Below, one piece after another: positions 4,542-64,000 of a stretch of DNA of 64,000 nucleotides. This DNA is from Acidisarcina sp. (GTDB lineage Bacteria > Acidobacteriota > Terriglobia > Terriglobales > Acidobacteriaceae). Position numbers and translations under genes: made by a program. The stretch lies in the NCBI GenBank assembly GCA_036401395.1, contig DASWUZ010000123.1, positions 3,597-67,596 on the forward strand. Direction: 5' to 3'. Positions within the stretch are counted from its first letter, which is position 1. Each line of letters begins with the position of its first letter. Under the pieces are notes generated by a model. The model did not search any database and was not told the DNA's origin. It was given only the letters and a program-made list of their open reading frames with translations.

Positions 4542-5399
4542 CATATAGACTCAGGTCAATCGTCGCCAATTGCCTACTCAGCTCCGACGGGTCTTGACCC
4601 TGACAGAGCGGGCAACATACCCACGGATGGCAAGAATTCCTATCGCTACGACGGCGAGGGGAGAATTTGTGCGGTTGCGTATGGCTCCAGTCCCGTGAAT
4701 TACGAGCAGTACGTCTACAACGCTCTTGGAGTGCGAGTAGCAAAAGCAAGCATCGCCGGAGCAGGGTTTCCAGCGGCAGGAGCTGTCTTCGCAGCTCCAG
4801 GAGCCGCCTCCGGGTTCTCGTTAACGAACCAATACCTGCTCGATCAAATTGGCGATCAGGTGACTGAACTGAATGGCTCTGGCACCTGGACGCACTCGAA
4901 CGTATGTGCTGGCGCTCACCTCCAGGCTACTTACGACACCAATGGATTGCACTTCCAATTGGCCCATCCTCTGGGCACGCGGCGCATCGAAACTGCCGCA
5001 GCGGGGACTGTAGATGGAACATATCAAAGCCTTCCCTTCGGAGACAATCTGGTCACTTCAGGCTACGACGCAACCGAACACCATTTCACCGGCAAAGAGC
5101 ACGATGCGGAAACTGGGAATGAGTACTTTGAAGCACGATATTACGGCGCGGCGATTGGGCGTTGGATGTCCCCGGACTGGAGTGCCAAGATTGAGCCCGT
5201 GCCGTACTCAAAGCTGGAAGACCCCCAGTCGTTAAATCTGTATGCATACGCAAGAAATAACCCCCTGACAATAATTGACGCGGACGGCCACGATGCCGCA
5301 CAGGATTCAAACGTACTGAGCGACTACGTATGGGGTAGCGGGGTCGGGAAGCGGCGAACTTGCAAGTGCTTAAAGCGTTTAATCTGCCGGAAGGCGTGA
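4542..5399 (+). pseudogene. Orphan RHS/YD-repeat core end plus C-terminal tip, fragment 1 (no N-terminal region)
   Basis: Frame is open from 4542 (stop at 4539-4541); the first start-like codon is GTG 4695 (track ORF 4695..5399). YD repeat DGKNSYRYDGEGRI. RHS core-end motifs HHFTGKEHDAETGNEYFEARYYGAAIGRWMSPD and PQSLNLYAYARNNPLTIIDADGH. No RBS and no N-terminal domain. The tail after DADGH looks out of frame (see findings). Confidence 0.75.
4707..5291 (+). repeat. Paralogous rhs core segment, copy A (partner 9230..9814)
   Basis: By-eye alignment with 9230..9814. The first 77 nt are identical (CAGTACGTCTACAACGCTCTTGGAGTGCG...CAGGAGC). Substitutions then accumulate toward the DxDGH boundary. 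Same length (195 codons) with no indels. Confidence 0.85.
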
Positions 5400-5488
5400 A
5401 CCGGAAGCCCGTTCTTTTCGGCGATGAATCGGTAGTCTTTCCGATCACTGTATAGACGAAGGTTTGCTATCAAACACAGTTCACTCGA

Positions 5489-5944
5489 ATGGATGTGAAG
5501 ACGGGCAAGGATGCGCCGTGGACGACGCTGGAATGCACACGGTACAACCTACTTGGCGACGGGCACATAATTTACACGAGCATGAAGGGCGACAGCCCGT
5601 TGGAGATTATCGGGGAAGGCAACGTCTCTTCGGCATCCTACAATCCGCCCAAAGGTGCTTATATCGACCGGGGTATCTTGGACGGCAGCAGCCCCGTAGT
5701 ATCCCCTCAGTCTCTGCGTGTAGTCGAGGAGCTGATAGAGGCGAAAGGCAGGCATCCACCGCTCGACATGTCTGGCAAGTTCGTTGGCCGGGACATCGTG
5801 CTTCTGGACATGCATACCGGCACGGCTCTGCTGACAGTGAAGGTGCCCTTGAGTACGCAGGTATATTCCTACGCGCTGTCTCGGGATGGAAAGCGGCTAG
5901 CCGTTTTGCTTGACTCGCAGTTGACTGTCTATCAGGTTCCATAG
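5489..5944 (+). CDS. Hypothetical protein with a beta-propeller-blade-like C-terminus; candidate partner or immunity gene of rhs tip 1
   Basis: ORF 151 aa, same strand, about 90 nt after the fragment 1 stop. The C-terminal part (DIVLLDMHTGTALLTVKV...YALSRDGKRLAVLLDSQLTVY) resembles one or two propeller blades. No family recognised with confidence. Confidence 0.4.
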   Translation: MDVKTGKDAPWTTLECTRYNLLGDGHIIYTSMKGDSPLEIIGEGNVSSASYNPPKGAYIDRGILDGSSPVVSPQSLRVVEELIEAKGRHPPLDMSGKFVGRDIVLLDMHTGTALLTVKVPLSTQVYSYALSRDGKRLAVLLDSQLTVYQVP

Positions 5945-6091
5945 CGCATACTCTGAACCTCCAGCAAGCCGCTCTCCGGGGCGGTTTGTTGGCGTCTATG
6001 GCATCCATCCGGCGTCTTGCTGGATATGGGCGGAAGAGTACGCTGCTCCGCATCGGCTGAATAGGAACGCGTCACCCAGAATGGGAGCTAC

Positions 6092-6459
6092 GGAGTAACT
6101 AAAAGTTCCTCTCGGGAAAGTTGCTGAAACAGGCTGCTAATAGAAAAAGGTGTAGGGGGTACCTTGTAAGTGAGCGCGCGTTGCTGTGGGGAACTCTATG
6201 ACTGCAGACCCTTAGCCGGCCTTGCTGCCCAATGTTGAGCAACGCGCATGCAGTGTGCGACCCGCCTCCGAACTCCCTTCCAAGAACTCATCTAGGGGGT
6301 GCTCTATGAAGCCACGGCTGCGTACCAAGAGAGTGAGCACGAAGGTTATTGAAAGGGAGGGGAGCCCGCAGGAGAGCGACAGACACAGGTCGATGCACGT
6401 AGTCGAAATTGAAGCGGCGAGAGCCTCCAAAATGTAGCGGCGTCACCAGAATTCAATAA
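6092..6459 (+). repeat. Repeated RHH-module, degenerate copy 1 (partner 10723..11208)
   Basis: Shares blocks with copy 2: GGAGTAACT(A/G)AAAGTT, GTGAGCGC(G/A)CGTTGCTG, CCCTTAG, ATGTTGAGCAACGC, ATGAAGCC.CGGCT.CGTAC.AAG, GTAGTCGAAATTGA.GCGGCGAGAGC.TCCAA.ATGTAGCGG and CCAGAATTCAATAA. The RHH-coding core of copy 2 is replaced here by about 50 unrelated nt. Track ORF 6222..6437 is the remnant. Confidence 0.7.
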
Positions 6460-6536
6460 GTATCAACAGGGGTATTTACTTCAAAACGCTTGTAAACGAC
6501 TCATTCGACACGGATAGAACCGATGATCTGTTTCTG

Positions 6537-8119
6537 GACGGTGCCGATGGCGGTCGCACCGCCAATTACGGGTATGATTCGATGGGACGGTTGATCTCGG
6601 CTAAGACCAACGGCTCCTCTGGTTACCCGCAATGGGGACTATCTGAGAGCTACGACCGGTATGGAAACCGCCTGAACCAGGCGGTCACGGCGGGAAGTGG
6701 GCCGTCGAGCAATCTAAGTTTTGGGTCGAACAATCAGCCCACCGGCTACACGTTCGACTCGAGCGGCAACATGACCGTGGAGCCGCTTTCCCCGCCCAAC
6801 AACATGACCTATGACGGTGAGAACCGGATGACGGCCTTCAGCGGAATTGGGGGAGCGGCGAGCTACACCTATGACGGAAATGGATTGCGGGTAGTCAAAT
6901 CCGTGCAAAGTGGGACGACAACTGTCAGTGTCTTCGCAGGCTCCTCGGTGATTGCCGAATACGACAACGGCGAGGCCCCGACGTCTCCTTCACGGGAGTA
7001 CATCTACAACCCTGCGGGCGGCGCGACGACCGGGCTGCTGGCCATGATCAGCGGGGGCATAACGACCTACTATCATCAGGACAGTCTATCTGTCCGGCTG
7101 ACGACGAATGGCAGCGGATCCATCTCAACTCAGGACGGAACTTTCCCGTTCGGCGAGTCGTGGTATCAATCCGGCACTTCGAACAAATGGATATTCACCA
7201 GCTATCAACGAGACTCGGAAAGCGGCCTGGTCTACTCCCTTGCTCGCTACTACAACAGCCGCACGGGAACGTTCTGCTCGGCGGATCCTCTGGCCGGTTC
7301 GCCCGATGATCCGCAGTCGTGGAACAGGTATCCGTATGGACGGAATGACCCCATCGACATCACCGATCCCAGCGGAAAGTCTTGGTGGAGTTCGCTTCTC
7401 ATCGGCGCTGGAGTAGCTGCCGCAATCTATTTCGCACCTGATATAGAAACATTCCTCGGTGAACACTTGGGACTGGCGCTTGGTGATTCTGCCCAGTCTG
7501 TATTAGCAACGCCCGCAGCCAATCCGGGACACGCCATAGGGCTCCTATTAAGGCCTGCCGTGCAGGCAGCTGGCGTAGCTGGTACGGAGGGCGCTGCTGC
7601 TGCTGGATCTGGCCTCGGCGCTGCCATCGCCGGTGGCGCAATTGCTGCCGGGGCCGCGCAGGCTGTCGACCAGCCGAAGACGCAAACGCCTAGAGGTGGC
7701 TGTGCACAGACTGTTCCCGGCACCGCCTCGAAGTACTGCGGTCCTCTACAGGACGGATTAGACGCCGCCAAAAAAGCACTTCAACGAAAGAAGTGCAACA
7801 AATTCTATGGTGGACAAGGGGCAGAGACTCTGAGCGGCACTACGTATCGATTCTTGCATCTACCCGATCCGACAACCGGTGCCGCAACCATCGACCCGAG
7901 CCACGTCTTCGTAAACTCAGATGGGCCATACATGAACTACACGCCCACGCAAGGTAAAGCAGGCCCATCGGTCGATTTTGGACACAAGGTCAATTCCGTG
8001 GCTTCCTCCTTCTGCATGAGCTTGGACACCAGCTCAGTCCGGTTACGGGTTTCGGCCCGGATACAGGTAGCCCCTTGAACCAAAAGCAGTCCGGTTGGGT
8101 GTTGTCTCACTGCTTCTAA
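6537..8119 (+). pseudogene. Orphan RHS/YD-repeat core end plus C-terminal tip, fragment 2 (tail frameshifted; track ORF 6582..8078)
   Basis: Frame is open from 6438; RHS-like sequence starts near 6537 (DGADGGRTANYGYDSMGRLIS). YD repeats YDRYGNRL, YDGENRMT, YTYDGNGLRVVK. Core end YYNSRTGTFCSADPLAGSPDDPQSWNRYPYGRNDPIDITDPSG. No N-terminal region. The -1 frame from 7958 carries HELGH and ends at 8119. Confidence 0.75.
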
Positions 8120-8133
8120 GAAAGAGAGGCCCG

Positions 8134-8520
8134 ATGCGATCAAAAGTATTGAAGTTCTGGCTTGTGGCTGTAACTTTTGCGTTGTGCTGTTCTGTGGCGA
8201 CTGCCACCTCTCCAGGAAGAATTAAGGGCCAAGTCTTGGACTCAGAGGGGGCCGTCATAGAGGGTGCACATCTGCTGCTCCATTCAGACCCGTCAGGGCA
8301 GAATAGGCCAGCCGCTCGTTCTGACGTCATGCGCGAGACCGACGCGGCGGGACTATTCGATGTCCAACTAGAGCCTGGATTCTATGATGTGTGCGTCATG
8401 GCGACTGCGTTTACACCGGATTGCCACAAGATTTTTATCACAAATGGAAAAACCATCCCATATGACGCCCGACTGAAAGCGGACCCCCTTGTGATTCAGC
8501 ATCTGGGCGACACGTTTTAG
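8134..8520 (+). CDS. Secreted carboxypeptidase-regulatory-like (beta-sandwich) domain protein; candidate immunity gene for rhs tip 2
   Basis: ORF 8095..8520 trimmed to ATG 8134, which gives the signal peptide MRSKVLKFWLVAVTFALCCSVATA. Purine-rich GAGAGG lies 4 nt upstream. GRIKGQVLDSEGAVIEGAHLLL is typical of the CarboxypepD_reg fold. Confidence 0.6.
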   Translation: MRSKVLKFWLVAVTFALCCSVATATSPGRIKGQVLDSEGAVIEGAHLLLHSDPSGQNRPAARSDVMRETDAAGLFDVQLEPGFYDVCVMATAFTPDCHKIFITNGKTIPYDARLKADPLVIQHLGDTF

Positions 8521-9094
8521 GTCGGTGACGGCCGCGTTCTTCCGGGGCAGTCTCGCTGTCTGTCCCGACCCTGAAAATCCGACCCTGAGTCAGTATCCCA
8601 AGGGCGATGCTGCCTCCGCATCGGGAGAATAGGGATATAGTACCCAGAATGAGGTGCGTGTGCCTCATCTTCATGTCGCGACCCCGCTTGGCGTCGATCT
8701 AGTTATCGCAATCAAGCTCACTCAATCCGTCGCGACCGTCGGCCCTGACGGGCAGAGTGACTTCCAGAAGGCGATGGCGGCACCCGCCTTCTAGCAGAAG
8801 TAGCACGAAAAGCTCATGGCACGGACGATGCGGCCAATCACCTTGATCCGAACGGGACATTTCATGGCGCAAATTGCGCGTTCGGGATCATCGGCAATGA
8901 CAAATTCGATGCGGCGTTCAAGAGTGCTCTCAATACCTCTGGGTGAGGCAGATGGCTCTACAGGTGCTCATAAATGGCTTGACTCCACCGACGCACGAGT
9001 AGGGTTTAGTACCTCACTCATCATGACAACGACAGACTCCACCCGCCAAGTCATACCTGAATCCAGTCGGTGCCGAATAAGCGATAGGGGCTGA

Positions 9095-10261
9095 TTGAGA
9101 GACCCATGTGACCTTATTGGTGGAATCATAAATGGCATTCACGCCGCGCGCCTTCGAGCAGTCGACTCCCGGCAGAATTGGGCCTTTTACTATGACACTT
9201 TGAATCGCCTGGTAGTCAATTACTACACCCAGTACGTCTACAACGCTCTTGGAGTGCGAGTAGCAAAAGCAAGCATCGCCGGAGCAGGGTTTCCAGCGGC
9301 AGGAGCGGTCTGCGCAGCTCCAGGAGTGGCGTCAGGGTTCATGCTAACGAACCAATATCTGCTCGATCAAAGCGGCGATCAGGTGACTGAACTGAATGGC
9401 TCTGGCACGTGGCTGCACTCGAACGTCTGGGCCGGCGCCCACCTAGACGCAACTTACGACATCAATGGCTTGCACTTCCACTTGGCAGACCCGCTCGGCA
9501 CCCGGCGCATTGAAACTGCCGCGGCCGGGACTATAGACGGAACGTACCAAAGTCTTCCCTTCGGAGACAACCTGGTCGCTTCCGGCTACGACGCGACCGA
9601 GCACCATTTTACCGGCAAAGAAAGAGACTTCGAATCCGGTAACGACTACTTCGGTGCGAGATACTACGCGTCGAGCATTGGCCGCTGGATGAGCCCAGAC
9701 TGGGCGGATAAACCAGAGGCTGTGCCGTACTCACAACTCGACAATCCGCAGTCTCTGAATCTATACGGATACATGGGCAACAATCCTCTTTCTAAAGCCG
9801 ACAAGGATGGTCACTGCTGGCCGGTTTGCACGGCAATTCTTGGTGCCGGGTTAGGTGCGCTCGCTGAAGCTGGTACTGAATATCTGAAGGGAGAGACGCT
9901 CAGCCCATACAAGATCGGAGCGGCGGCGTTAGCCGGACGCATCACGGGAGCTATCGCGGGCCCGATTGGAGACGCGGCAGAGTTGGGGGTTGCGGCTAAA
10001 GTTGGGGGACAATTAGCGGCCAATCTCATTGGCGGAGCCGTCGAGCGGAAGCTTAACGGACAAAAGGTTCTTGATCCGAAGGCTGCCATTGCCGACGCCG
10101 CTGGTGCAGCCGCTACCGGCAAGGTAGCGAAGGGACTCGAAAAGCACGCTTGCGTCCGAGGTTGTGAAAAAGGTCTCTGGAGCTGCCATCGAAGTCACCG
10201 GCGGTGTAGCGAAGAACCTGCTGACAGCCAAGCCGGAGGCGCACAAACCAGAAGTTCCTAA
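9095..10261 (+). pseudogene. Orphan RHS/YD-repeat core end plus C-terminal tip, fragment 3 (no N-terminal region)
   Basis: In-frame TGA at 9092-9094; the first codon is TTG. FYYDTLNRLV YD repeat, then a core segment paralogous to fragment 1 (HHFTGKERDFESGNDYFGARYYASSIGRWMSPD, PQSLNLYGYMGNNPLSKADKDGH). Gly/Ala-rich hydrophobic tip. The last roughly 40 codons look out of frame. Confidence 0.75.
9230..9814 (+). repeat. Paralogous rhs core segment, copy B (partner 4707..5291)
   Basis: See copy A. Identity is highest at the 5' end and decays toward the tip boundary. Confidence 0.85.
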
Positions 10262-10324
10262 GGATAAGAGACCTGGTTCCAACTGACAAATTAGCTGCAT
10301 CAAAGCGAATCGGCGGGACCGAAG

Positions 10325-10621
10325 ATGAAACTTGAACTGAAGAAGTGGCCGTTTGGAGCAATCGTTGCTCTGTCTATTATCCTCAGTGTGTTCCACGCAC
10401 TTGTTCAGCTCAGGTGGGCGGCGCTCAGGTATAGATCGTTCGGACCACGACCCCTTGGAGCACAAGCGGTTATCGCCGTCGAAGTGCTTCTCCTGATGGT
10501 CATTTTCACTGTTGGCATGATGCACGTGAGCGACGAGGAGAGCACATCGTCCTCGGGAAGGTACTATCTCGGGATCGTAACAGCTGTTGGAGCATGGATC
10601 GTTGTCTCGTTCTTCATTTGA
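10325..10621 (+). CDS. Small three-TM membrane protein; candidate immunity gene for rhs tip 3
   Basis: ORF 98 aa, same strand, 39-64 nt after the tip 3 end. Three hydrophobic spans: FGAIVALSIILSVFHALV, AVIAVEVLLLMVIFTVGMM, LGIVTAVGAWIVVSFFI. Confidence 0.55.
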   Translation: MKLELKKWPFGAIVALSIILSVFHALVQLRWAALRYRSFGPRPLGAQAVIAVEVLLLMVIFTVGMMHVSDEESTSSSGRYYLGIVTAVGAWIVVSFFI

Positions 10622-10722
10622 GTCGTTCTGGCATGTCGGTTGTCAGATGCATCGTTTCGATCAAGAGCGCGCTGCCTACGGCATTGGAAGTAGGTGACAC
10701 AACACCCCGGATCGGATGTTGT

Positions 10723-11208
10723 GGAGTAACTGAAAGTTACGCTTGGGGAACTTGCTGAAAACAGTAGCTAATAGACAGAAATATCTATGTTGGCGTTACC
10801 CTAGAGGTGAGCGCACGTTGCTGACGGGGAACCATATGAGTCTCAACCCCTTAGTCCGCCTCCGGCCCCGTTGCCCGATGTTGAGCAACGCATGACGAGC
10901 ATGTGGCCTCTCCCCGAAAATCCTCTCTGGCGGTGCAGCATGAAGCCGCCGCTCCGTACAAAGTCAGTCGGCACGAAGGACAGCGAGGCGGAGTTCGCGT
11001 TGCTGGAGGAACGTGCGCGTGTGGCCGGGATGCGTCTGGCCGAGTGGGTTCGCGAGGCGCTATTGCTGCGCAATAGTAGAGGAGTCGACAATCGAACTTT
11101 ATGGGCTGAAGGCCTCGCCACTTTGGCGAAGAGAGGGCTTCGGTTCTGTAGTCGAAATTGATGCGGCGAGAGCATCCAATATGTAGCGGATTCTCCAGAA
11201 TTCAATAA
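10723..11208 (+). repeat. Repeated RHH-module, fuller copy 2 (partner 6092..6459)
   Basis: Same conserved blocks as copy 1. Contains the intact 73-aa RHH ORF. Confidence 0.7.
10940..11161 (+). CDS. Ribbon-helix-helix (MobC/CopG-like) DNA-binding protein
   Basis: ORF 10871..11161 trimmed to ATG 10940 (MKPPLRTK...). SEAEFALLEERARVAGMRLAEWVREALL matches the beta-strand plus two-helix pattern of MobC/CopG-type RHH proteins. Start is uncertain, because the upstream codons (VEQR...) are also conserved in copy 1. Confidence 0.55.
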   Translation: MKPPLRTKSVGTKDSEAEFALLEERARVAGMRLAEWVREALLLRNSRGVDNRTLWAEGLATLAKRGLRFCSRN

Positions 11209-11281
11209 ACTTCCACAGGGACGTTGATTCTGAACGGCCCTCAAACTGCTCATTATAAACCGGTAGCCTTCATGACATAAC

Positions 11282-11331
11282 TCTGGTTCGGAACCAGGGG
11301 GTTGGAGGTTCAAATCCTCTCTCCCCGACCA
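11282..11331 (+). other. 3' half of a tRNA-Pro(CGG): anticodon arm to CCA, no 5' half; likely integration-site remnant
   Basis: Anticodon stem TCTGG/CCAGG (11282-86 / 11294-98). Anticodon loop TTCGGAA with CGG at positions 34-36. Variable loop GGGTT. T arm GGAGG-TTCAAAT-CCTCT. Acceptor 3' strand CTCCCCG, discriminator A, then CCA (11329-31). C1-G72 plus A73 fits bacterial tRNA-Pro. No matching CGGGGAG acceptor 5' strand or D arm upstream. Confidence 0.65.
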
Positions 11332-11413: not shown

Positions 11414-11623
11414 ATGGGGCGTGTGGCCCGCATTGTGGTTGCCGGTCTTCACATCACGTGACTCAGCCGGAAACCGGGAAGCGATTTTCTTCCAGGGACG
11501 ACCACGAGATTTACCTCGATCTGCTTGCCGCGCAAACCTCGAAGGCGGGGGCGAGGTTTGGCGTATTGCCTGATGCCTAACCACGTGCACGTTCGCCAGG
11601 TACCACCTTCATTGCCATGCTAA
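11414..11623 (+). pseudogene. REP-associated tyrosine transposase (IS200/IS605 Y1-like) remnant, multiply frameshifted and truncated
   Basis: N-terminal family motifs are spread over three frames. MGRVARIVVAGL (from ATG 11414, stop at 11459), HHVTQ, GNREAIFFQ, DDHEIYLDLLAAQTSKAG, then AYCLMPNHVHV (11561-11593), ending at TAA 11621-11623. Only about 65 of the expected 150 or more residues are present. Confidence 0.7.
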
Positions 11624-11847: not shown

Positions 11848-13608
11848 CTATTGTGCATGCCGTTCATAACCACGGGAGCCATTACCTTCAGTTAGCGTGA
11901 TGTAGGAATCTACATTTGCCGGGGGCTGAAAGGATTCTGTTTCGCCGTCAGGCCAGCGCACCTCGATGCTCTTGATCGCTGTGCCAGCTCCCAGTCCGAA
12001 GTGAAGGCGAAGATCGCTGGACGAATTATAGCTTGAACCGCTGCGGACTTCATCGACCCAGTTGCGCTTCGGTCCATGAATAGTCACCCGCGCACCGATA
12101 GCGTCACGATTTGACTTAGTTCCGATAAGTTGCAGACCTATCCAATGATTGGGGTTTTTAGCAACGTTCACAAGCAGCATGGGCACGTCGCTGAGGTTGT
12201 TAACGACAGCCTCAAGCCGGCCGTCATTGAACAGATCGGCGATGGCTAGACCCCGACCCGATTGGGGCGTAACTAGTCCGGGCCCTGAGGACTTGCTTAC
12301 ATCTTTGAACTTGCCATTGCCAAGGTTGTAATAAAGGAACCGCGGTTCGCGGTAGGCAGCTCCCAGCTTTTCCGAATCGACCTCTGGATACACGTGACCA
12401 TTCACCACAAGCAGGTCGGGCCAGCCATCATTGTCCACGTCGGCAAACATCGTGCCCCAACCCAAAGCGTCGCTATTGATGGCAAGCCCAGCCGCAAACG
12501 TAACATCTGTATAGGTGCCGTCGCCATTGTTGTGGTAGAGCGTTGACGTGTCATCAGAGAAATTTGTCTTGAATAGATCGAGTCTTCCGTCCCCATCATA
12601 GTCTGCAGCCGTGGAACCCATGCCAGCCTGCTCGCGGCCATCCTCATTGAATGCCGCTCCGGCATCGGCGCCAACATCGGTAAAGGTACCATCGTGGTTA
12701 TTGCGATATAGTATCGCGGGCGTAGAGTCGCACGCGACGTATATGTCGGGCCATCCGTCGTCGTTATAATCCAACGTTGTGACCGAGAAGCAATAGTGGC
12801 CTGTAGTTTTCTCAATGCCGCTTGTCTTACTCACGTCTTCGAACTTGCCATTGCCCAGGTTATGAAAGAGAAGGTTGGGTGCGCTATCAAGTCCACGCGG
12901 GCCGCACATAACAGCTACACCCTTCCAGTTGCAGGATGCGGCTTGCCCTGGGGCCGGCGTCTTTGCCAGATCGAAGTGGACGTAGTTCGCAACCACTAAA
13001 TCAAGCTTTCCATCGCGGTCGTAGTCGATGAATGCGCAGCCGGTACCCCACTCTTTGCCGCTGCCCGCCACACCGGCCTGCTCCGCCACTTCCTTGAAGG
13101 TACCGTCCCGCTGATTATGGTATAGCCGGTTCTTTCCATAGCCGGTGACATAAAGATCGTCGTATCCGTCATTGTCGTAGTCACCAACACACGCACCCTG
13201 GCCCCACGCGGTAGCAGCCAGGCCGGCCTTTTTAGTTACATCGGTGAAGGTGCCGTCATGGTTGTTATGGAATAGGTGACTTGTCGGCTTATCTGAAGGC
13301 CCAGGCATCTTCTGGTTAGGCAGAGTAGAGCCATTCACGATAAAAATGTCGGGCCAACCATCCCGGTCATAGTCGATGATCGCCACTCCAGAACCGGTGG
13401 ACTCTATGATGTAGCGTTTTGACTCCAGGCCGCCGTTCACATTGCGGACTGCTATCCCCGCCTGGCCGGCCATGTCGACGAACCAGGCCGGACCTGGATG
13501 ATCAGAGGTTGGCGGGTAGGGCGATTGGCTGACCCCGTCGGGAGAGATGACAGATATTAGTAACACCGCAGTTATAACGCGGCCGCAGCTTACCAGGATC
13601 TTAGCCAC
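11848..13608 (-). CDS. CRTAC1-family protein (FG-GAP/VCBS repeats plus ASPIC/UnbV C-terminal domain), secreted
   Basis: ORF 586 aa with a GTG start. Repeated DYDxDGxxD / GxGxAxADYDGDG motifs. C-terminal IGARVTIHG...VRSGSSYNSSSDLRLHFGLG. N-terminal hydrophobic signal. Confidence 0.85.
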   Translation of the reverse strand: MAKILVSCGRVITAVLLISVISPDGVSQSPYPPTSDHPGPAWFVDMAGQAGIAVRNVNGGLESKRYIIESTGSGVAIIDYDRDGWPDIFIVNGSTLPNQKMPGPSDKPTSHLFHNNHDGTFTDVTKKAGLAATAWGQGACVGDYDNDGYDDLYVTGYGKNRLYHNQRDGTFKEVAEQAGVAGSGKEWGTGCAFIDYDRDGKLDLVVANYVHFDLAKTPAPGQAASCNWKGVAVMCGPRGLDSAPNLLFHNLGNGKFEDVSKTSGIEKTTGHYCFSVTTLDYNDDGWPDIYVACDSTPAILYRNNHDGTFTDVGADAGAAFNEDGREQAGMGSTAADYDGDGRLDLFKTNFSDDTSTLYHNNGDGTYTDVTFAAGLAINSDALGWGTMFADVDNDGWPDLLVVNGHVYPEVDSEKLGAAYREPRFLYYNLGNGKFKDVSKSSGPGLVTPQSGRGLAIADLFNDGRLEAVVNNLSDVPMLLVNVAKNPNHWIGLQLIGTKSNRDAIGARVTIHGPKRNWVDEVRSGSSYNSSSDLRLHFGLGAGTAIKSIEVRWPDGETESFQPPANVDSYITLTEGNGSRGYERHAQ

Positions 13609-15638
13609 TATGACTTTGTCCCCATTTGTGCCACGCCAGAGCCTGGGCCCATCGCTATAGCCTCAAGAATCTTTCCACCTTCCTGGATAACATAAAGATG
13701 GTTTGCAGCAAGTCTGGTAAGCCGGTCCACCGCGCCAGAGGGCCATCTGATTTCGACAGCATCCGCCTTATCTGCCCTGTCGAGACCAAAGTGGATTCTA
13801 AAATCACTCTGAGAGTAATAGCTGCCGCCGCTCCTTACTTCCTCAATTTGAATGAACGGCTTGGCGTCCGGTGCAGGCTGCGTGATAATGCTGATCCGGG
13901 CACCTATGCCTGAGCGGTTCGACTTAGTACCGACCGTCCTGATCTTGATCCAGTTGCGTACCCGGTTACCCGGAAGCGTGCAGTCGTTCCTCAGCAACTG
14001 AGGCAGGCTGTTCACGCAGTTCACGATGACATCAACGTCGCCGTCGTTGTCGAAGTCGCCGAAGGCGCAGCCCCTCGCCGGCGCGGGAGCCGTAATCCCG
14101 GGCCCGCCCTGGTTAGTGACCTCCTCGAACTGGCCGTTACGCAAGTTGCGATACAGATACTTATGCTGCCTATATGGCGCATCAACTTGAGTACCATCAA
14201 CCTCTGGATAAACATGGCCATTGCAAATCAGCAGGTCAAGCCATCCATCGTTGTCCATGTCAAAGAAGCCCACACCCCAGCCGAGCAAACGTGTATTGAC
14301 GCCGAGACCGGCAAGGTAGGTCCTGTCTTCAAAGGCGCCTGAGCCCATGTTTTGATACAGGGAGTCTGTATCGCCGGCAAAATTGGTCTTAGCTATATCG
14401 AAGAGCCCATCTCGATTAAAGTCGCCTATGGATACACCCATCCCGGCCTGCGGCTTGCCGTCGGGGGAGTAGGCTATTCCTGACTCGATCGCTACATCCT
14501 TGAAGGTACCGTCCTTCTGGTTCTTGTAGAAGGTCGCAGCCGTGGAATCATTTGCAACATAGATATCAGGCCATCCATTCCCGTCCATATCGCACACGGC
14601 GACCGAGAGACCATAAGTCCCGACTGTGTTCCAGATGCCGCTTTTCTCGGAGACATCGGTGAATGTTCCGTCGCCATTGTTGTGGTAGAGGATATTTTTC
14701 CCACCTTGCAGGCCCGGTGGCCCGCAGGCTACCTGAATTCCTTTATAGACACAGTTAGCGGCCTCCGGCAATGGGGCGGTCTTTATGTCGAAATCAATGT
14801 AGTTAGCGACAAACAAGTCAAGGTGGCCGTCACGATCGTAGTCGAGAAATGCGCACCCGGAGTTCCACCGGATCTTCGACTGCACCATGCCGGCTTTCTT
14901 CGTTACATCAGTAAAAGTGCCATTACCATTATTGCGATACAAGACATTCTGACCGTAGTAACTTACAAATAAGTCGTCCCAGCCGTCATTGTTGTAGTCG
15001 CCTACACAGCAACCCTGGCCCCATCCACCGTGTATCAGCCCAGCCTTTACAGTGACGTCGGTGAAGGTACCGTCGCGGTTGTTCTTAAACAAATGGTTGG
15101 TGGGCGCCTTCGCTGCTGGAAAGCCTTCCAACCGAGTACCGTTGACCAGGAAAATATCGAGCCAGTTATCGTGATCATAGTCGTAGAATGCTACTCCGCA
15201 ACCTGTGGTCTCAAGCAAGTACCTGTTCTTGTGTTCGCCGCCGTAAGTGGTTTTCGCGTTCAGCCCGGACTGTAGCGCTACATCGACGAACGAGACGCCC
15301 AGCGGAGTTCCTGCGACTGTAGAGGGCAGGCCTGGAGGAGGCGGCTGCGGCTTTGCATCATATGCCGGACGTTGCGCCACCATACCGGTTGCCTGGGCCT
15401 GGGCCCCGGCCAGAGCGAGTACGTCTTCCAGAGTAAGCACCAGCGCTGTGGCGGAAAGTGACCGAAGAAATGTCCTGCGTGACGAACTCAAACACACTCC
15501 TGGAACCTTGTAGCGGCCCGTGAAAGCCCTCTGCCCGTAAATGATCGCCTCGCTGGCTAGCGAAGCCGCTAGCCAGACAAGGCCTGCCGTTTTCGTTAGT
15601 CTACGACTGTGCGCCGCTACTGGGCTATGGCGCAGCAA
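13608..15638 (-). CDS. CRTAC1-family protein (FG-GAP/VCBS repeats plus ASPIC/UnbV domain) with a twin-arginine signal
   Basis: ORF 676 aa. Tat-like SSRRTFLRSLSATALVL. Same repeat architecture as its neighbour. C-terminal IGARISI...VRSGGSYYSQSDFRIHFGL. The true start is probably downstream of 15638. Its stop overlaps the next gene's start by 1 nt. Confidence 0.85.
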   Translation of the reverse strand: MLRHSPVAAHSRRLTKTAGLVWLAASLASEAIIYGQRAFTGRYKVPGVCLSSSRRTFLRSLSATALVLTLEDVLALAGAQAQATGMVAQRPAYDAKPQPPPPGLPSTVAGTPLGVSFVDVALQSGLNAKTTYGGEHKNRYLLETTGCGVAFYDYDHDNWLDIFLVNGTRLEGFPAAKAPTNHLFKNNRDGTFTDVTVKAGLIHGGWGQGCCVGDYNNDGWDDLFVSYYGQNVLYRNNGNGTFTDVTKKAGMVQSKIRWNSGCAFLDYDRDGHLDLFVANYIDFDIKTAPLPEAANCVYKGIQVACGPPGLQGGKNILYHNNGDGTFTDVSEKSGIWNTVGTYGLSVAVCDMDGNGWPDIYVANDSTAATFYKNQKDGTFKDVAIESGIAYSPDGKPQAGMGVSIGDFNRDGLFDIAKTNFAGDTDSLYQNMGSGAFEDRTYLAGLGVNTRLLGWGVGFFDMDNDGWLDLLICNGHVYPEVDGTQVDAPYRQHKYLYRNLRNGQFEEVTNQGGPGITAPAPARGCAFGDFDNDGDVDVIVNCVNSLPQLLRNDCTLPGNRVRNWIKIRTVGTKSNRSGIGARISIITQPAPDAKPFIQIEEVRSGGSYYSQSDFRIHFGLDRADKADAVEIRWPSGAVDRLTRLAANHLYVIQEGGKILEAIAMGPGSGVAQMGTKS

Positions 15639-15708
15639 GGTTTGGGCAGTCGGAAGATGACACGATCAAAGCCGGACGCGTCGTCGGTCTCGCGCCTCAG
15701 ATGTTTGG

Positions 15709-17463
15709 CTAAGGTCCAGGTTGTTTGACGGATTGCTCCGCCCGCTCCCGATCGAGCCTGTCTGCCTTCTGGCGTTCGAGCGCCGCCTCCGCCGCATTGC
15801 CCTGGCGGCCAAGGGCATCGGCCAGCATGCGGTGAGGTGTGGCATAGCCCGGATCAGCGGCCACAGCGAGCCTCAGTTGAGTCACAGCGTCCTCGACCTT
15901 ACCGATCTTGAGCAACGCGGTCCCAGTGCCCAGTGCGAAGTCGGAGCGCTGCCTGCTCACGGCTATGCGACTCAGCTCGGCCGCAATCTTTCGCTCGGCA
16001 GCGGCTCCAGCCTGGTCGCCCTGCTGAGCAAGTATCGCCGCAAGAGTAATGTGTGATCCCGGTTGATTTGGCAACAGTTCTATAGCATGGCGCAACGCGG
16101 GAACTGCTTTGCCGGGCACATTCATCTGCCGGTAAGTACTGCCGAGCACCGACCAGGCGTCGCCATTCTCAGGACGCATCCTGACCGCGGCCTCCATCTG
16201 TTCGGCAGCCTTGGCAAACTCGCCGGTCTGCATGTAGAGCACTCCGAGGGTATAAGGCGGATCGGGCAGGCTAGGGTTAGCTGCTTCTGCCAAAAGAAGT
16301 TCGGCGACCGCTTCGGGCAATCTGTCTTTTAGTTTCAGCGCCAGACCCAGATCGTAGTGCAGCGCAGCCGCCTGCGCGCCGCCCTGGTTGGGAAGCGCAA
16401 GCCCCGCCCTGAACTCGGCAATCGCATGATCGAGGTCGCTCTGCTGTAAATACGCCACACCCAGGTCTTCCAGCAGCACGGGGTTAGCCGCATCGAGCTT
16501 CAATGCCCGTTCATAAATCGGCACCGCTTGCCTGGCTTGACCATCCTGAACCAGCTCAAGTGCATAGTTGGTCAGCACCTGGGCATCCCCGGGCCGAGCG
16601 GAGGCCGCTACGGCAAACAGCGGAACAGCTTCTTTTGTCTCACCCGCATTCTGTAGCGCCAGCGCCAGCGAGTAGGTTGCGTCGACCGACGAGGGCGCGA
16701 TCCGGTGAGCGTGCCGCAGTGTCTCTAACGCATCTTCATCAAGCCGCTGAGCAATCTGCGCCCGCCCCAACTGCAGCAAAATATTCAAATCGTTGGGCGC
16801 AAGTTTCCCGGCTGCCTGCAACTCGTCCACTGCCTCCGGAAGTCTCTGCTCCACGAGGTCGAGTGAGCCGAGGTGAAAATGGGCGGAGGAAGAGTTCGGA
16901 TCCAGGGTCAGAGCTTTTTCCAACTCAGCGCGCGCCTCATCATATCTTTGCTGCTGAGCAAGTACTGCCCCCAGCGCATCATGGAGTGGGGCATTTTCGG
17001 GGTTTGCGGTGGCCGCCTTTTGCAACTTCAGGGTCGCGTCCTGCACTTTGCCGGTACCCACAAGGCTGGTCGCGTAGGCGAGCGTCGACTCGGCGCTCAG
17101 CGTCACAGCAGGTTGAAGCGAGCGAAACAGCGTAACGGAGTCGGCAAATCGGCGCTGCGAGCAGTAAGCATTTGCAAGGTTCAACGTGGTGGTCTGGTCC
17201 CTGTCGTCGAGACGATGCGCCTTCTCCAGCTCGGGGACGGCGGCAGCTAATTTACCCTCGGCCAACAGTACGGCACCCAGAGCTCCATGGCCAGCTGCGG
17301 AACCCGGCATGAGCCGAACGACTTTTGCGAATTCGGACTCAGCGCGAGGCAGGTCGTTGCTCTTCATAGCTGCGAATCCTGCATGGAAGGCAACATCGCC
17401 TGAGTGAATCTGCTGCGATGTCTGGAGCAGGAACACAAACGTAAGAAGAGCACTCATGCACAT
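15709..17463 (-). CDS. Tetratricopeptide (TPR) repeat protein, secreted
   Basis: ORF 584 aa with an N-terminal hydrophobic signal. More than 12 consecutive 34-residue A/L/Y/G-patterned repeats (e.g. AHFHLGSLDLVEQRLPEAVDELQAA). Lies upstream in the same orientation as the two CRTAC1 genes. Confidence 0.8.
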   Translation of the reverse strand: MCMSALLTFVFLLQTSQQIHSGDVAFHAGFAAMKSNDLPRAESEFAKVVRLMPGSAAGHGALGAVLLAEGKLAAAVPELEKAHRLDDRDQTTTLNLANAYCSQRRFADSVTLFRSLQPAVTLSAESTLAYATSLVGTGKVQDATLKLQKAATANPENAPLHDALGAVLAQQQRYDEARAELEKALTLDPNSSSAHFHLGSLDLVEQRLPEAVDELQAAGKLAPNDLNILLQLGRAQIAQRLDEDALETLRHAHRIAPSSVDATYSLALALQNAGETKEAVPLFAVAASARPGDAQVLTNYALELVQDGQARQAVPIYERALKLDAANPVLLEDLGVAYLQQSDLDHAIAEFRAGLALPNQGGAQAAALHYDLGLALKLKDRLPEAVAELLLAEAANPSLPDPPYTLGVLYMQTGEFAKAAEQMEAAVRMRPENGDAWSVLGSTYRQMNVPGKAVPALRHAIELLPNQPGSHITLAAILAQQGDQAGAAAERKIAAELSRIAVSRQRSDFALGTGTALLKIGKVEDAVTQLRLAVAADPGYATPHRMLADALGRQGNAAEAALERQKADRLDRERAEQSVKQPGP

Positions 17464-17578
17464 AGAAGTTTACGTGGGGAGCGAGGAAAGCGCACCGGGC
17501 TCTTCGTCGCCGGCTATGAGTTCGCCCTCCTTCCGGTGCGGCGGCCGGCACGGTATCCTCGCTCAAGGTGCTCCACCC

Positions 17579-18712
17579 ATGTCCCGGTCTTGTGTTTGTT
17601 ATTTTCGCGCTATCAGCTGGCCACTCCTTACCGAAGTCATTGTGGCCTTCGTCATAATCTTTGCCACAGCCAGGACCGCGCGGCCGCAATCCGAGGAGCC
17701 CAGTCCGCCGTCTCTCACCACAGTACCCACTGCTCCAGCCGGGGCAACCCCGGCTCCCCCGGCATCCAGCTCTTCCCTCAACCAGGTACAACGAATGATA
17801 GACAAGGGCCGGTTCACGGAAGCGCTCAAACAACTCGACCTCATGACCGTGGAACAGCCGATTCCGGCTGGCGTCAAGCGCCTTCAGGGGCAGGCGTACT
17901 ATGCGATGGACCGGTTGACCGAGGCGGAGGCCGCCTTTGCCGCAGCAGCCGCCCAGGACCCGCAAGACGTTGAATCTCTACAGATGCGCGGCCTCGCCCT
18001 ATTCAGATTGGGCAAACCAGCCGATGCCATCCCTTTGCTCCTCAAAGCGCAACAGTGGGGCCCGCAGACCAGGGTCGATCCAAACTATGTGCTCGCCCTT
18101 TGCTACCTGGACACTCGCCGTTACGATGACGCGCGACGCTCATTCGCCGCTCAGTACGGCTTTGAACCCGACTCTGCCCGTTCCTATCTGCTCGCGGCCC
18201 GGATGCTTCTGAGGCGCGACTATGTGCCCATCGCCCAGCAGTATGCCCATAAGGCCATCGAACTCGATCCACAGATCCCGCTGGCGCATGGTCTGCTGGG
18301 CGAAGCGGCGCTCGCAGGCAACCACCTTGACGAAGCAGTAGCCGAGTTTGAGAGCGAACGCGCCCGCAACCCCCTCGAGCCCGGGGTCTATGACCGGCTC
18401 GGGGATGCGTATCTGCGCCTGGGCAACTACGAGACGGCCAGGCAGTTCCTGCAAAGGGCCGTGTTGCTTGAACCCAACGCGACCGGGCCATACATCTTGC
18501 TCGGCAAGACCCTGCTCAAGTTGCAGTCACCCGCAAATGCGCTGCTCTATCTGGAACGTGCAGAGGCAATGGACCAGGGAAACTTCATGACCCATAGCCT
18601 TCTTGGGCAAGCCTATCGCGGTGTAGGCAGGCTGGAAGACGCCACTCGAGAGAACGAAATCTCACAAAAGTTACAGGCTGCTAATCAGCCCAAACTTCAG
18701 GGACTACAGTAG
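17579..18712 (+). CDS. TPR repeat protein with an N-terminal membrane anchor or signal
   Basis: ORF 17456..18712 trimmed to ATG 17579 (MSRSCVCYFRAISWPLLTEVIVAFVIIFATA). Several TPR units follow. Start is uncertain. Confidence 0.7.
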   Translation: MSRSCVCYFRAISWPLLTEVIVAFVIIFATARTARPQSEEPSPPSLTTVPTAPAGATPAPPASSSSLNQVQRMIDKGRFTEALKQLDLMTVEQPIPAGVKRLQGQAYYAMDRLTEAEAAFAAAAAQDPQDVESLQMRGLALFRLGKPADAIPLLLKAQQWGPQTRVDPNYVLALCYLDTRRYDDARRSFAAQYGFEPDSARSYLLAARMLLRRDYVPIAQQYAHKAIELDPQIPLAHGLLGEAALAGNHLDEAVAEFESERARNPLEPGVYDRLGDAYLRLGNYETARQFLQRAVLLEPNATGPYILLGKTLLKLQSPANALLYLERAEAMDQGNFMTHSLLGQAYRGVGRLEDATRENEISQKLQAANQPKLQGLQ

Positions 18713-54146: not shown

Positions 54147-55132
54147 ACCCCTTTACCTACCAGCGAGCCCACGACCCTCAGGATGCGGTGATCGCCCGCT
54201 CTCGTTCTAAAGACTCGATGTTCCTCGGAGGAGGCACCAACCTCGTCGACCTGATGAAGATGGGCGTCGAACAGCCCGGCAAGCTCATCGACATCAATCG
54301 CCTCGAGCTCGCCCAGATCGAAGAGCTCCCTGACGGGGGACTTCGCCTCGGCGCACTCGCCCGCAACAGTGACACCGCCTCCAATCCGCTCGTCCGTGAA
54401 CGCTATCAGCTGCTGGCAGAGGCCATTCTCTCCGGCGCATCGCCCCAGCTCCGTAACCGCGCCACCAACGGCGGGAACCTTCTACAGCGCACGCGCTGCT
54501 ACTACTTCTACGACCCCGCGTACACCCGCTGCAACAAGCGCAACCCCGGCAGTGGATGCGACGCCATCGGCGGCTACAACCGCATCCACGCGATCCTCGG
54601 CGCGAGCGAAGAATGCATCGCCACTCACCCCTCCGACATGTGCGTTGCGCTGGCCGCCCTCGAAGCGAACGTTCGCGTGCGTGGCCCTAAAGGGGAGCGC
54701 ACCATCCCCTTCAACGAATTCCACCGTTTGCCCGGCAAGACCCCGCAGATCGACACCAACTTGAAGCCCGACGAACTCATCCTCTCCATCGACCTTCCTA
54801 AATCAAACTACGCCGCCCACTCGCACTACCTCAAAGTTCGCGACCGCGCGAGCTACGCCTTCGCGCTTGTCTCCGTAGCTGCCGCACTGGACCTCGATGG
54901 CACGACCATCAAGTCCGCACGCATCGCGCTCGGCGGAGTGGCCCACAAGCCCTGGCGCAGTGAAAAGGCCGAGCAGTTGCTGGCCGGCAAGCCCCTAGCC
55001 GAAGAAGCGTTCCTCGCCGCCGCCAACGAACTTCTTGCCGGGGCGAAAACCTACGAACACAACCAATTCAAAGTGGAGATGGCCAAGCACGCCGTCGTCC
55101 GCGCACTTAGCATTGCAGGGGGGCTGGCATGA
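54143..55132 (+). CDS. FAD-binding medium subunit (PaoB/CoxM-like)
   Basis: ORF 329 aa. FLGGGTNLVDLMK. CO dehydrogenase flavoprotein-type C-domain. Overlapping stop/start on both sides. Confidence 0.88.
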   Translation: MNPFTYQRAHDPQDAVIARSRSKDSMFLGGGTNLVDLMKMGVEQPGKLIDINRLELAQIEELPDGGLRLGALARNSDTASNPLVRERYQLLAEAILSGASPQLRNRATNGGNLLQRTRCYYFYDPAYTRCNKRNPGSGCDAIGGYNRIHAILGASEECIATHPSDMCVALAALEANVRVRGPKGERTIPFNEFHRLPGKTPQIDTNLKPDELILSIDLPKSNYAAHSHYLKVRDRASYAFALVSVAAALDLDGTTIKSARIALGGVAHKPWRSEKAEQLLAGKPLAEEAFLAAANELLAGAKTYEHNQFKVEMAKHAVVRALSIAGGLA

Positions 55133-63025: not shown

Positions 63026-64000
63026 ATGCTGAATGAGATGCACACCTGTTCCCTTGTCGTCAGGCGGAAACCGCCGATGCCCCTGCAAATGATGGCCGCG
63101 GCAGCACTCTGCATGACTCTCCCCGGCTACTCTCAGACCAACTCAGCCTCCGCAGATCAGCTCCTGAACCAGGCCATCGATGCGCAGCAGCGTGGCGACT
63201 ATCCAGTCGCCATTCGCGACTACCGCACAGTTCTCGAGCTCCGTTCAAAGGACGTGGAAGCCAGGGTGAATCTGGGCGCGGCACTAGTCCACACAGGCCA
63301 TTTCGATGAAGGCATCGCTGAATACAAGACCGCCCTCCCATCGGTCGCCATTAAAGATCCCGTGCTGCTCGACCTGGGCCTCGCCTACTACAAAAAAGGC
63401 GACATGAAGAATGCCCTGGAGCAGTTCGATATACTGCATCGGTCCCAGCCGGGCAACGTACGTGTGACCATCCTGCTCGCCTACACCGAAATCAATACGG
63501 CACATGCCGATGCGGCCGTTGCACTTCTGTCCCCTCTCGAGTCAGCGAATTCCGCCAATCTCGAATTTGAATACGTCCTCGGATCGGCCCTGATTAAAGA
63601 CGGCGCACGCACAGAAGGAGTGACCCGGTTGGAGAAAGTCGCCGAGGCCAGCCACAACGCCGACGCATATCGTCTCGCGGGCTCCACCCTGCTCGACATG
63701 AACGACGACTATGAGCGCGCGCGCCATGACCTGGACGCCGCTCTCGCGATCGACCCAAAGCAGCCGGGTCTCTATACTCTCGCGGGCAATGCCCGAGTAA
63801 AGTCAGGCGACCTGGCAGGCGCCGAGGAGGCCTTTCGTACCGCCCTGAAGTTAAATCCCGATGACGTCGACGCTAACCTTTACCTGGGCGCTATCCTCTA
63901 CAAGCGACGGGACACAGACGAAGCGCGTGGCTACCTCGAACGGGCGCTGCGTCTCAATCCGAAATCCTCAATGGCCGTCTATGAAATGGCCATGCTAAAA
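63026..64000 (+). CDS. TPR repeat protein, C-terminus beyond the window
   Basis: Not in the track because there is no stop before the window end. In-frame TAG at 63005-63007, first ATG at 63026 (alternatives 63038 and 63077). Signal-like PMPLQMMAAAALCMTLPGYSQ, then TPR units (e.g. ARVNLGAALVHTGHFDEGIAEYKTAL). The frame is open to 64000. Confidence 0.7.
   Translation, partial: MLNEMHTCSLVVRRKPPMPLQMMAAAALCMTLPGYSQTNSASADQLLNQAIDAQQRGDYPVAIRDYRTVLELRSKDVEARVNLGAALVHTGHFDEGIAEYKTALPSVAIKDPVLLDLGLAYYKKGDMKNALEQFDILHRSQPGNVRVTILLAYTEINTAHADAAVALLSPLESANSANLEFEYVLGSALIKDGARTEGVTRLEKVAEASHNADAYRLAGSTLLDMNDDYERARHDLDAALAIDPKQPGLYTLAGNARVKSGDLAGAEEAFRTALKLNPDDVDANLYLGAILYKRRDTDEARGYLERALRLNPKSSMAVYEMAMLK

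Follow-up and report, generated by a model that had tools for sequence, protein, structure and literature searches.

The closest described counterparts of the locus analyzed here are the orphan rhs-CT/rhsI and cdiA-CT/cdiI arrays (PMC3150448, PMC3967940, PMC3482391), in which gene ends that are 5'-truncated and devoid of translation starts keep their core homology. In the rhs-CT/rhsI arrays these ends form tandem cassettes on one strand, a toxin tip followed by its cognate immunity gene, with signs of recombination in the core. A protective role has been shown for orphan immunity genes within contact-dependent growth inhibition (CDI)/Rhs and type VI secretion system (T6SS) settings (PMC3150448, PMC5361080, PMC10539506); in the Vibrio cholerae T6SS (PMC5361080) and in Serratia Rhs (PMC10539506) intact immunity genes outlive toxin genes that were lost or broken, and likely protect against non-kin. 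The region considered here spans 4.5–11.3 kb of a 64,000-nucleotide (nt) stretch (hereafter, the window) of the Acidisarcina sp. (Acidobacteriaceae) contig DASWUZ010000123.1, of 83,505 bp, from the metagenome-assembled genome (MAG) GCA_036401395.1. A preliminary description, made from the letters alone, saw in it three truncated rhs ends, each with a tip of its own and a small partner gene in the place of an immunity gene, and left the choice between a detached silent toxin/immunity reservoir and the wreck of a larger locus. The wreck is favored by the disabled toxins, the scrambled rhs scraps, two mobC remnants, a tRNA fragment and the intact layout of relatives, all documented below, and the silent reservoir is disfavored. 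Three features were absent from that description: the frameshifts, the repeated flanking element and the mobile-element setting. With a probability of about 80%, the region is what decay has left of an rhs polymorphic-toxin locus, formerly carried as cargo on the margin of an integrative element (conjugative or mobilizable) inserted at a tRNA-Pro(CGG) gene. As an array it fits the orphan rhs-CT/rhsI concept, except for the missing main gene and the dead toxins.

That three 5'-truncated rhs ends lie on the same strand was borne out by profile searches. The RHS-core search proposed in the preliminary description was positive for three of three fragments: TIGR03696 (Rhs_assc_core; cut-off 32.5 bits) matched the open frames 4542–5399 (fragment A, 69.4 bits, E 2.9e-19), 6438–8078 (fragment B, 62.0 bits, E 5.6e-17, with RHS similarity beginning at about 6531) and 9095–10261 (fragment C, 62.1 bits, E 5.5e-17), all, like every feature below unless stated otherwise, on the forward strand. 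A core profile of our own, built on the last ~200 residues before the tip in 28 relatives (alignment A1), had these three core regions as its only matches in the 64 kb (E 3.7e-96 for fragment A). Pfam alone gave a weak RHS signal on the fragments; the YD repeats of fragment B were matched by PF05593 (E 9.6e-06) and TIGR01643, those of fragment A were weak in Pfam, and both fragments matched our own profile of the region upstream of the core. In GenBank the three are labeled "RHS repeat-associated core domain-containing protein" (HEY0795182.1, HEY0795184.1, HEY0795186.1).

As also described before, none of the fragments has an N-terminal region, and the open frames begin after stop codons. A full-length Rhs protein would combine an N-terminal secretion or delivery region with a complete YD shell of more than 1000 amino acids (aa); in the fragments about 280 residues at most precede the core end. 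The absence of a full-length rhs holds for the whole window, where the longest open reading frame (ORF), of 1021 aa, is an RND pump and the other large ones encode FG-GAP/ASPIC, TPR and GGDEF-EAL proteins, a molybdenum cofactor dehydrogenase and a Tad-like protein. The upstream neighbor of the array is an RND/TolC-like operon that ends at 4387, and not the main rhs that a strict orphan array would have directly upstream. The window thus differs from the orphan rhs-CT/rhsI arrays in lacking a main rhs upstream, in the inactivation of all three toxin parts and in having a foreign gene fragment for one partner. It differs as well in the core ends of fragments A and C, which read NNPLxxxDxDGH and not DPxGL, and in a structured 3' flank behind each cassette. 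The motif NNPL(T/S)xxDxDGH, present in A and C, is common to about 110 of 120 relatives, and the core of fragment B ends in NDPIDITDPSGK; these core ends appear to be a variant of the PxxxxDPxGL-type cleavage motif by which the tip is demarcated, with cleavage putative.

Beyond their 5' truncation, all three fragments are pseudogenes, and their toxin parts are disabled. Fragment A (4542–5357; TIGR03696 and own core profile) holds the last YD repeats and the core, which terminates in ...NNPLTIIDADGH at 5291, leaving about 22 residues of its own after the ...DADGH motif and no toxin domain. At about 5350–5360 it is joined, in another frame, to the 3' part (~190 codons, 5360–5944) of an unrelated gene, whose homologues at L156, L157 and L158 reach further upstream at the protein level. 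The intact form of this gene, with ~366 codons and a signal peptide, occurs in L157 (654–1754); it is also recognizable in L156, and in L158 as a frameshifted copy, and the secreted ~366-aa family has no Pfam match. In the window piece an in-frame TAG stands at 5453–5455.

Fragment B (6531–8119; TIGR03696, YD repeat matches, homologues P0121–P0123) comprises YD repeats, a core ending at 7379, a Gly/Ala-rich linker and an HExxH toxin domain. The domain that follows the core and the Gly/Ala-rich stretch is about 75% identical to the metagenome proteins P0121–P0123, which run on into ...FRGFILLHELGHQLSPITGF..., a segment holding the HExxH motif (HELGHQL). In the window, two-frame alignment places this continuation in a different frame, at 7958–8116 with the stop at 8117–8119, after a 1-nt frameshift in which one base is missing at about 7967. 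The HExxH domain has no Pfam or PDB sequence match (a PDB profile search returned noise only), and its AlphaFold model, with a mean confidence (pLDDT) of 37.6, is too poor for a fold search; judged by its motif, it would be metallopeptidase-like and resembles the RHS-linked metallopeptidase toxins (PMC3482391), to which it has no profile match.

In fragment C (9170–10286; TIGR03696, alignment A1) one early YD repeat, the last repeat, a core ending at 9814 and a Gly/Ala-rich helical toxin domain follow each other. The YD repeat NWAFYYDTLNRL, which normally lies about 120 residues further upstream, here abuts TQYVYNALGVRVAK, indicating an internal deletion of the YD region. The tail departs from the frame of its homologues after ...KGLEK, at about 10147, through a 1-nt frameshift and meets a stop in the other frame at 10284–10286, as seen by aligning it with P0005, P0007 and P0010 (82–90% identical) and by three-frame translation. 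The 3' ends previously given for B and C, at 8078 and 10261, are therefore artefacts of the frameshifts, the homologous reading frames stopping at 8119 and 10286. The AlphaFold model of a tip-C-type toxin is all-helical and, with a pLDDT of 42.8, too poor for a fold search. Directly upstream of fragment C, on the opposite strand, lies a scrap of rhs coding sequence (NAIYDSTNKVTWVSQSAPIAYSAPTGFRYDLAGG, 9035–9142; E 2.4e-07 with the N-terminal-region profile), which records an inversion that took place as the locus decayed.

Such lesions might also arise if rhs repeats had been collapsed or mis-joined in a short-read MAG, which would account for the stand-alone look of the array, its duplication or its frameshifts. 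The source is indeed a third-party MAG, the locus contains a 543-nt repeat, and the Logan contig from SRR11271806 (possibly the same reads as the MAG) breaks within both copies of that repeat. However, this contig is identical over about 4856–9259 and reproduces both the junction of fragment A and the frameshift of fragment B, the traces of decay belong to several kinds that are independent of one another, comprising a deletion junction, inverted sequence, a stop codon in frame and two 1-nt indels, and single-base indels are uncommon in Illumina assemblies. An artefact of assembly or sequencing is thus regarded as distinctly unlikely.

The three partner ORFs announced by the preliminary description are present, at 5489–5944, 8134–8520 and 10325–10621, and together with the distinct tips they fared differently from cassette to cassette: a separate C-terminal tip and a partner of its own hold for B and C, where the pairing with the same toxin types is conserved in synteny, and fail for A. 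ORF 5489–5944 was rejected as an immunity gene, since it belongs to the truncated larger gene, whose homologues are not rhs-linked: they do not stand beside RHS genes where the upstream region is visible (L157, L158/L159; L156 starts at a contig edge), and no homologue occurs in 80 rhs loci. It is instead part of a gene fused by deletion. Immunity candidate B (8134–8520) is intact and has a signal peptide and a CarboxypepD_reg-like beta-sandwich (PF13620, E 5.8e-08). Its full-length homologues, with 56–69% identity, start 3–11 nt past the HExxH toxin ORF in L084 and L085, two unrelated contigs. Immunity candidate C (10325–10621; hypothetical protein HEY0795187.1 in GenBank) is likewise intact, with three predicted transmembrane helices, and its homologues begin about 37 nt after a tip-C-type toxin in L083 (identity 72% in alignment A7 and 73% by tblastn) and in L082 (42%). 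Toxin/immunity pairs are, by the standards of comparative work, recognized by a pairing that is kept in divergent loci. Since homologues of both partners come immediately after toxins of the same types, on four metagenome contigs that are independent of each other, ORFs 8134–8520 and 10325–10621 are credible immunity genes. The pairing of the Gly/Ala-rich helical toxin with a membrane protein suggests, by inference only, that tip C was a membrane-active toxin.

The intactness of both immunity genes fits one further explanation as well, namely that the orphan pairs are expressed from internal promoters and act inside the cell like toxin-antitoxin modules, for which the orphan rhs of Salmonella provides a precedent (PMC7043789). 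Against it, the toxin frames have no starts and are frameshifted or deleted, and a consensus promoter scan, which was not tuned for Acidobacteria, found fewer sites than in shuffled sequence; such modules are considered very improbable here. Whatever function the locus may still have probably does not extend beyond its two intact immunity genes, which, by analogy with the orphan immunity genes mentioned above, may protect against the HExxH-type and Gly/Ala-rich helical toxins of neighbors. The likeness to V. cholerae and Serratia lies in intact immunity genes beside lost or broken toxin genes. Unlike in those systems, no T6SS context was seen here, the related full-length proteins have Sec signal peptides, and protection is putative.

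Fragments A and C share a 543-nt repeat with 82% identity, at whose start, exactly at the breakpoint where the homology of C to A begins, 77 nt are identical (4707–4783 = 9230–9306). An identical run at the breakpoint of an 82% repeat indicates recombination or gene conversion between cassettes, and the 543-nt core homology, including this run, suggests a record of such an event. Recombination or gene conversion between cassettes is the usual route by which arrays grow and are shuffled. The same homology could serve a functional silent reservoir, in which the cassettes are recombination donors and a full-length rhs elsewhere captures a tip and its immunity gene through the core. Orphan cassettes of CDI and Rhs systems function in this way (PMC3150448, PMC3967940), and stand-alone fragments are frequent in related genomes. 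In the present case, however, no toxin part among the three is intact, a toxin made with a captured tip would therefore be dead, and no full-length rhs lies in the window. Lengths among the 120 closest relatives of fragment C run from 230 to 675 aa, and this MAG contributes to them only the window fragments A and C; an exact 24-mer from the 4707–4783 segment had no match in GTDB genomes. A working reservoir is therefore an unlikely reading of the locus.

The decayed-remnant reading draws on what follows the cassettes and on the layout of relatives. Past the cassette, units A and C are colinear (6073–6345 and 10703–10979, 68% identity; 6399–6471 and 11148–11220, 86%), and the flank that they share encodes a MobC/NikA-like ribbon-helix-helix gene (MKPPLRTKSVGTK...) which is truncated in both copies, in the first more so. 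Remnant 1 (MKPRLRTKRVSTKV..., 6307–6437), identified by its homology to the second unit, has an internal deletion. Remnant 2 (10940–11161) matches PF21983 with E 9.3e-05, below the Pfam cut-off; the first 48 of its 74 residues match MobC of related loci, with 73% identity to the L034 gene that precedes a coupling protein and TrwC. The sequence after the mobC truncation is common to both copies, which implies that the end of the array was duplicated after mobC broke. Further downstream, at 11283–11331, lies a 49-nt 3' fragment of tRNA-Pro(CGG), from the anticodon stem to CCA, recognized by reading the sequence. The tRNA-Pro piece noted in the preliminary description is thus real, and neither ARAGORN nor Rfam reports a whole tRNA. 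A tRNA-Pro(CGG) fragment with the same 5' breakpoint occurs downstream of rhs orphans in another MAG (L008, 9600–9648), where there is no complete tRNA either. Probably the fragment is the remnant of an attachment site, as its position and shared breakpoint would indicate. Past it, at 11430–11600, there is a possible transposase pseudogene in a shifted frame, with the motif AYCLMPNHVH, which we take to be that of IS200/RAYT-like Y1 transposases and for which Pfam gives no match; at the DNA level this piece matches, with 73% identity, a stretch of L046 that follows an rhs fragment (10701–10901).

In a scan of one genome per species, 80 loci proved to be related, and almost all of them belong to Acidobacteriaceae or other Terriglobia. 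In many of them a full-length RHS of 1700–2400 aa is followed by one to six fragments of 250–570 aa, which all have a core but differ in their tails, the layout of a classical orphan array; full-length genes with downstream orphans are found in L011, L012, L024, L030, L034, L039, L057 and L080. The full-length RHS proteins of relatives carry signal peptides, and the orphan fragments begin at arbitrary positions in the repeats, as expected of recombination products. The idea that the short homologues are complete "mini-Rhs" genes was rejected, since most start arbitrarily within repeats and those with signal peptides are the second genes of split RHS systems (see below). The arrangement is complete in the cultured Tunturibacter empetritectus M8US30 (L034), with a 1695-aa RHS, an immunity gene, one orphan cassette, the flank, a NikA-like gene, a coupling protein and TrwC; the latter module (13171–18425) matches the TrwB domain of coupling proteins (1.7e-76) and the TrwC relaxase (3e-88). 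In L039 the flanking element, a MobC-like gene and TrwC are found, and in L012 and L022 TrwC adjoins the full-length RHS. Tyrosine integrase genes lie upstream in L085, L034 and L038, the order in L085 being integrase, RHS of 1580 aa, orphan and immB-like gene. The window resembles tRNA-inserted genomic islands and integrative and conjugative elements (ICEs) in having a tRNA 3' fragment at one end and remnants of a relaxosome accessory gene, while relatives have an integrase upstream and coupling protein and TrwC downstream of the rhs array. Unlike such islands, it keeps remnants only. No integrase, relaxase or coupling protein was found in the window, and neither an intact tRNA-Pro nor a second copy of the repeat.

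In the ancestral state so reconstructed, an RHS of ~1700–2400 aa would have been followed by its immunity gene, one to six orphan cassettes (each an rhs core 3' end with toxin tip and immunity gene), a structured element, mobC/nikA, a coupling protein and TrwC. The array would have stood at the right-hand end of the integrated element, nearly all the rest of which has since been lost, and the locus would owe its present shape to a doubling of the array end, to several deletions, to inversion of one piece and to point indels. At present no toxin would be made or delivered from it. Several points weigh against this reconstruction. It is the window alone that was read, and a full-length rhs elsewhere in the MAG, able to recombine with the cassettes, is possible; the origin from a mobile element is deduced from remnants and from what other genomes show, with the mobC remnant scoring under the Pfam cut-off. 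On its left side the island has no defined limit, and no relative shares the context past the TolC-like gene: among 70 metagenome loci with the RND-TolC pair (≤77% identity), none has the downstream genes of the window. In many related loci the rhs fragments have no full-length gene closer than 10 kb, and detached cassettes may therefore have some selective value. Finally, the frameshift of fragment C is witnessed by one MAG assembly only.

The structured flank is a conserved element of about 100–145 nt with three hairpins, located 3' of rhs toxin/immunity cassettes. In the window, copy 1 (5966–6123) combines a terminator-like hairpin with the three short hairpins (nhmmer E 3e-30; 76 bits with a covariance model of which it is a training-set member), and copy 3 (10652–10754) has the three-hairpin part only (nhmmer E 2.8e-14; 74 bits, also a training-set member). 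Copy 2 (8587–8686; repeat D4), outside the training set, is degenerate and has lost the third hairpin (14.6 bits, E 0.012). With this degenerate copy, detected by the covariance model after immunity gene B, all three window cassettes end with the element. Iterative nhmmer searches seeded with 5950–6130 detected the element 39 times across 1.19 Mb of rhs loci, without exception on the rhs strand, mostly right after the last immunity gene of the array and at times between cassettes. Besides the window, carriers are L011, L034, L075, L031, L007 and about 30 other loci; in nine places a MobC-like gene follows some 185–260 nt past the element. The same searches gave no copy in control loci of similar organisms, which amounted to 825 kb, and none in the other ~57 kb of the window, where the covariance model returned one weak match far from rhs (63122–63210, reverse strand, 11.8 bits, E 0.075), probably by chance.

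The better-conserved 3' part of the element, of about 100 nt, holds the three short hairpins, and it is covariation that speaks for them. In a sequence-only alignment (A4), 80.6% of the cells can pair, compared with 35–38% when the partners are slid, and two-sided changes amount to 47 cells vs. 20 in shuffles, a value reached by none of 500 shuffles; an alignment of 40 copies fitted to the model gives the same picture. Folded singly, the sequences are not more stable than shuffled ones. G-U and A-C mismatches are about equally frequent, so that RNA and DNA structure are indistinguishable, and the element may act either as RNA, in a 3' untranslated region, a terminator or a leader, or as DNA, in the form of an origin of transfer or of a site where recombination or protein binding takes place. 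No gathering-score match to Rfam 15 was obtained across the whole window (an RNAI hit with E 1.5 in 5900–6560 is at chance level), and the element had no match in a pattern scan of IMG/VR or in PLSDB plasmids. That it is an origin-of-transfer-like or regulatory region of the mob module is a plausible assignment whose chance is put somewhat short of even.

Other observations concern the wider family and the window. In some loci (L161 380–7426, L162 and a JGI 3300050821 contig) RHS is split: genes of 553–580 aa, holding the last YD repeats, core and toxin and their own signal peptide, directly follow RHS/Big_3_5 genes of 1052–2069 aa. This recalls TcB/TcC of the ABC toxin complexes, in that the toxin-bearing C-terminal part (~550–580 aa) is a separate gene after a large RHS. 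Unlike TcB/TcC, these C-terminal genes of related contigs carry their own signal peptides and no TcA-like gene was seen; the window fragments have no such starts. Whole C-terminal subunit genes, and not just tips, may be the unit of exchange in some of these bacteria. The gene directly after the full-length RHS in L034 (10933–11454), in the immunity position, encodes a DUF4279 protein (E 7.7e-19). A permuted transfer-messenger RNA (tmRNA) of 585 nt reported by ARAGORN at 54391–54975 on the reverse strand was rejected as a probable false positive, as it has no Rfam tmRNA match at gathering score and lies inside ORFs.

As for what the locus means, the array itself adds little, because orphan Rhs cassettes are well described and the RHS core labels are already in GenBank; it is of a known kind, though unusually decayed, and the flanking element is the only item that is possibly new. 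The locus is, nevertheless, a clear case of toxins decaying while the matching immunity genes persist, which fits the retention of antidotes against the weapons of neighbors. Two pairs without a Pfam family recur in soil Acidobacteriaceae: in one a secreted beta-sandwich protein accompanies the HExxH toxin, and in the other a three-transmembrane protein accompanies the Gly/Ala-rich helical toxin. The link of the rhs array to the module of MobC, coupling protein and TrwC recurs too; if functional, it would explain how cassettes spread, and the intact arrangement in the cultured T. empetritectus M8US30 makes this rhs-mob link testable. A more specific and rather doubtful proposal is that the element is no passive flank but a dedicated signal, which would serve as origin of transfer or as recombination site and so couple Rhs toxin/immunity arrays to a family of tRNA-integrating conjugative elements in Acidobacteriaceae, the window being a fossil of that system. 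If that were true, Rhs cassettes would travel among soil bacteria as the cargo of ICEs, with their fixed hotspot beside mobC.

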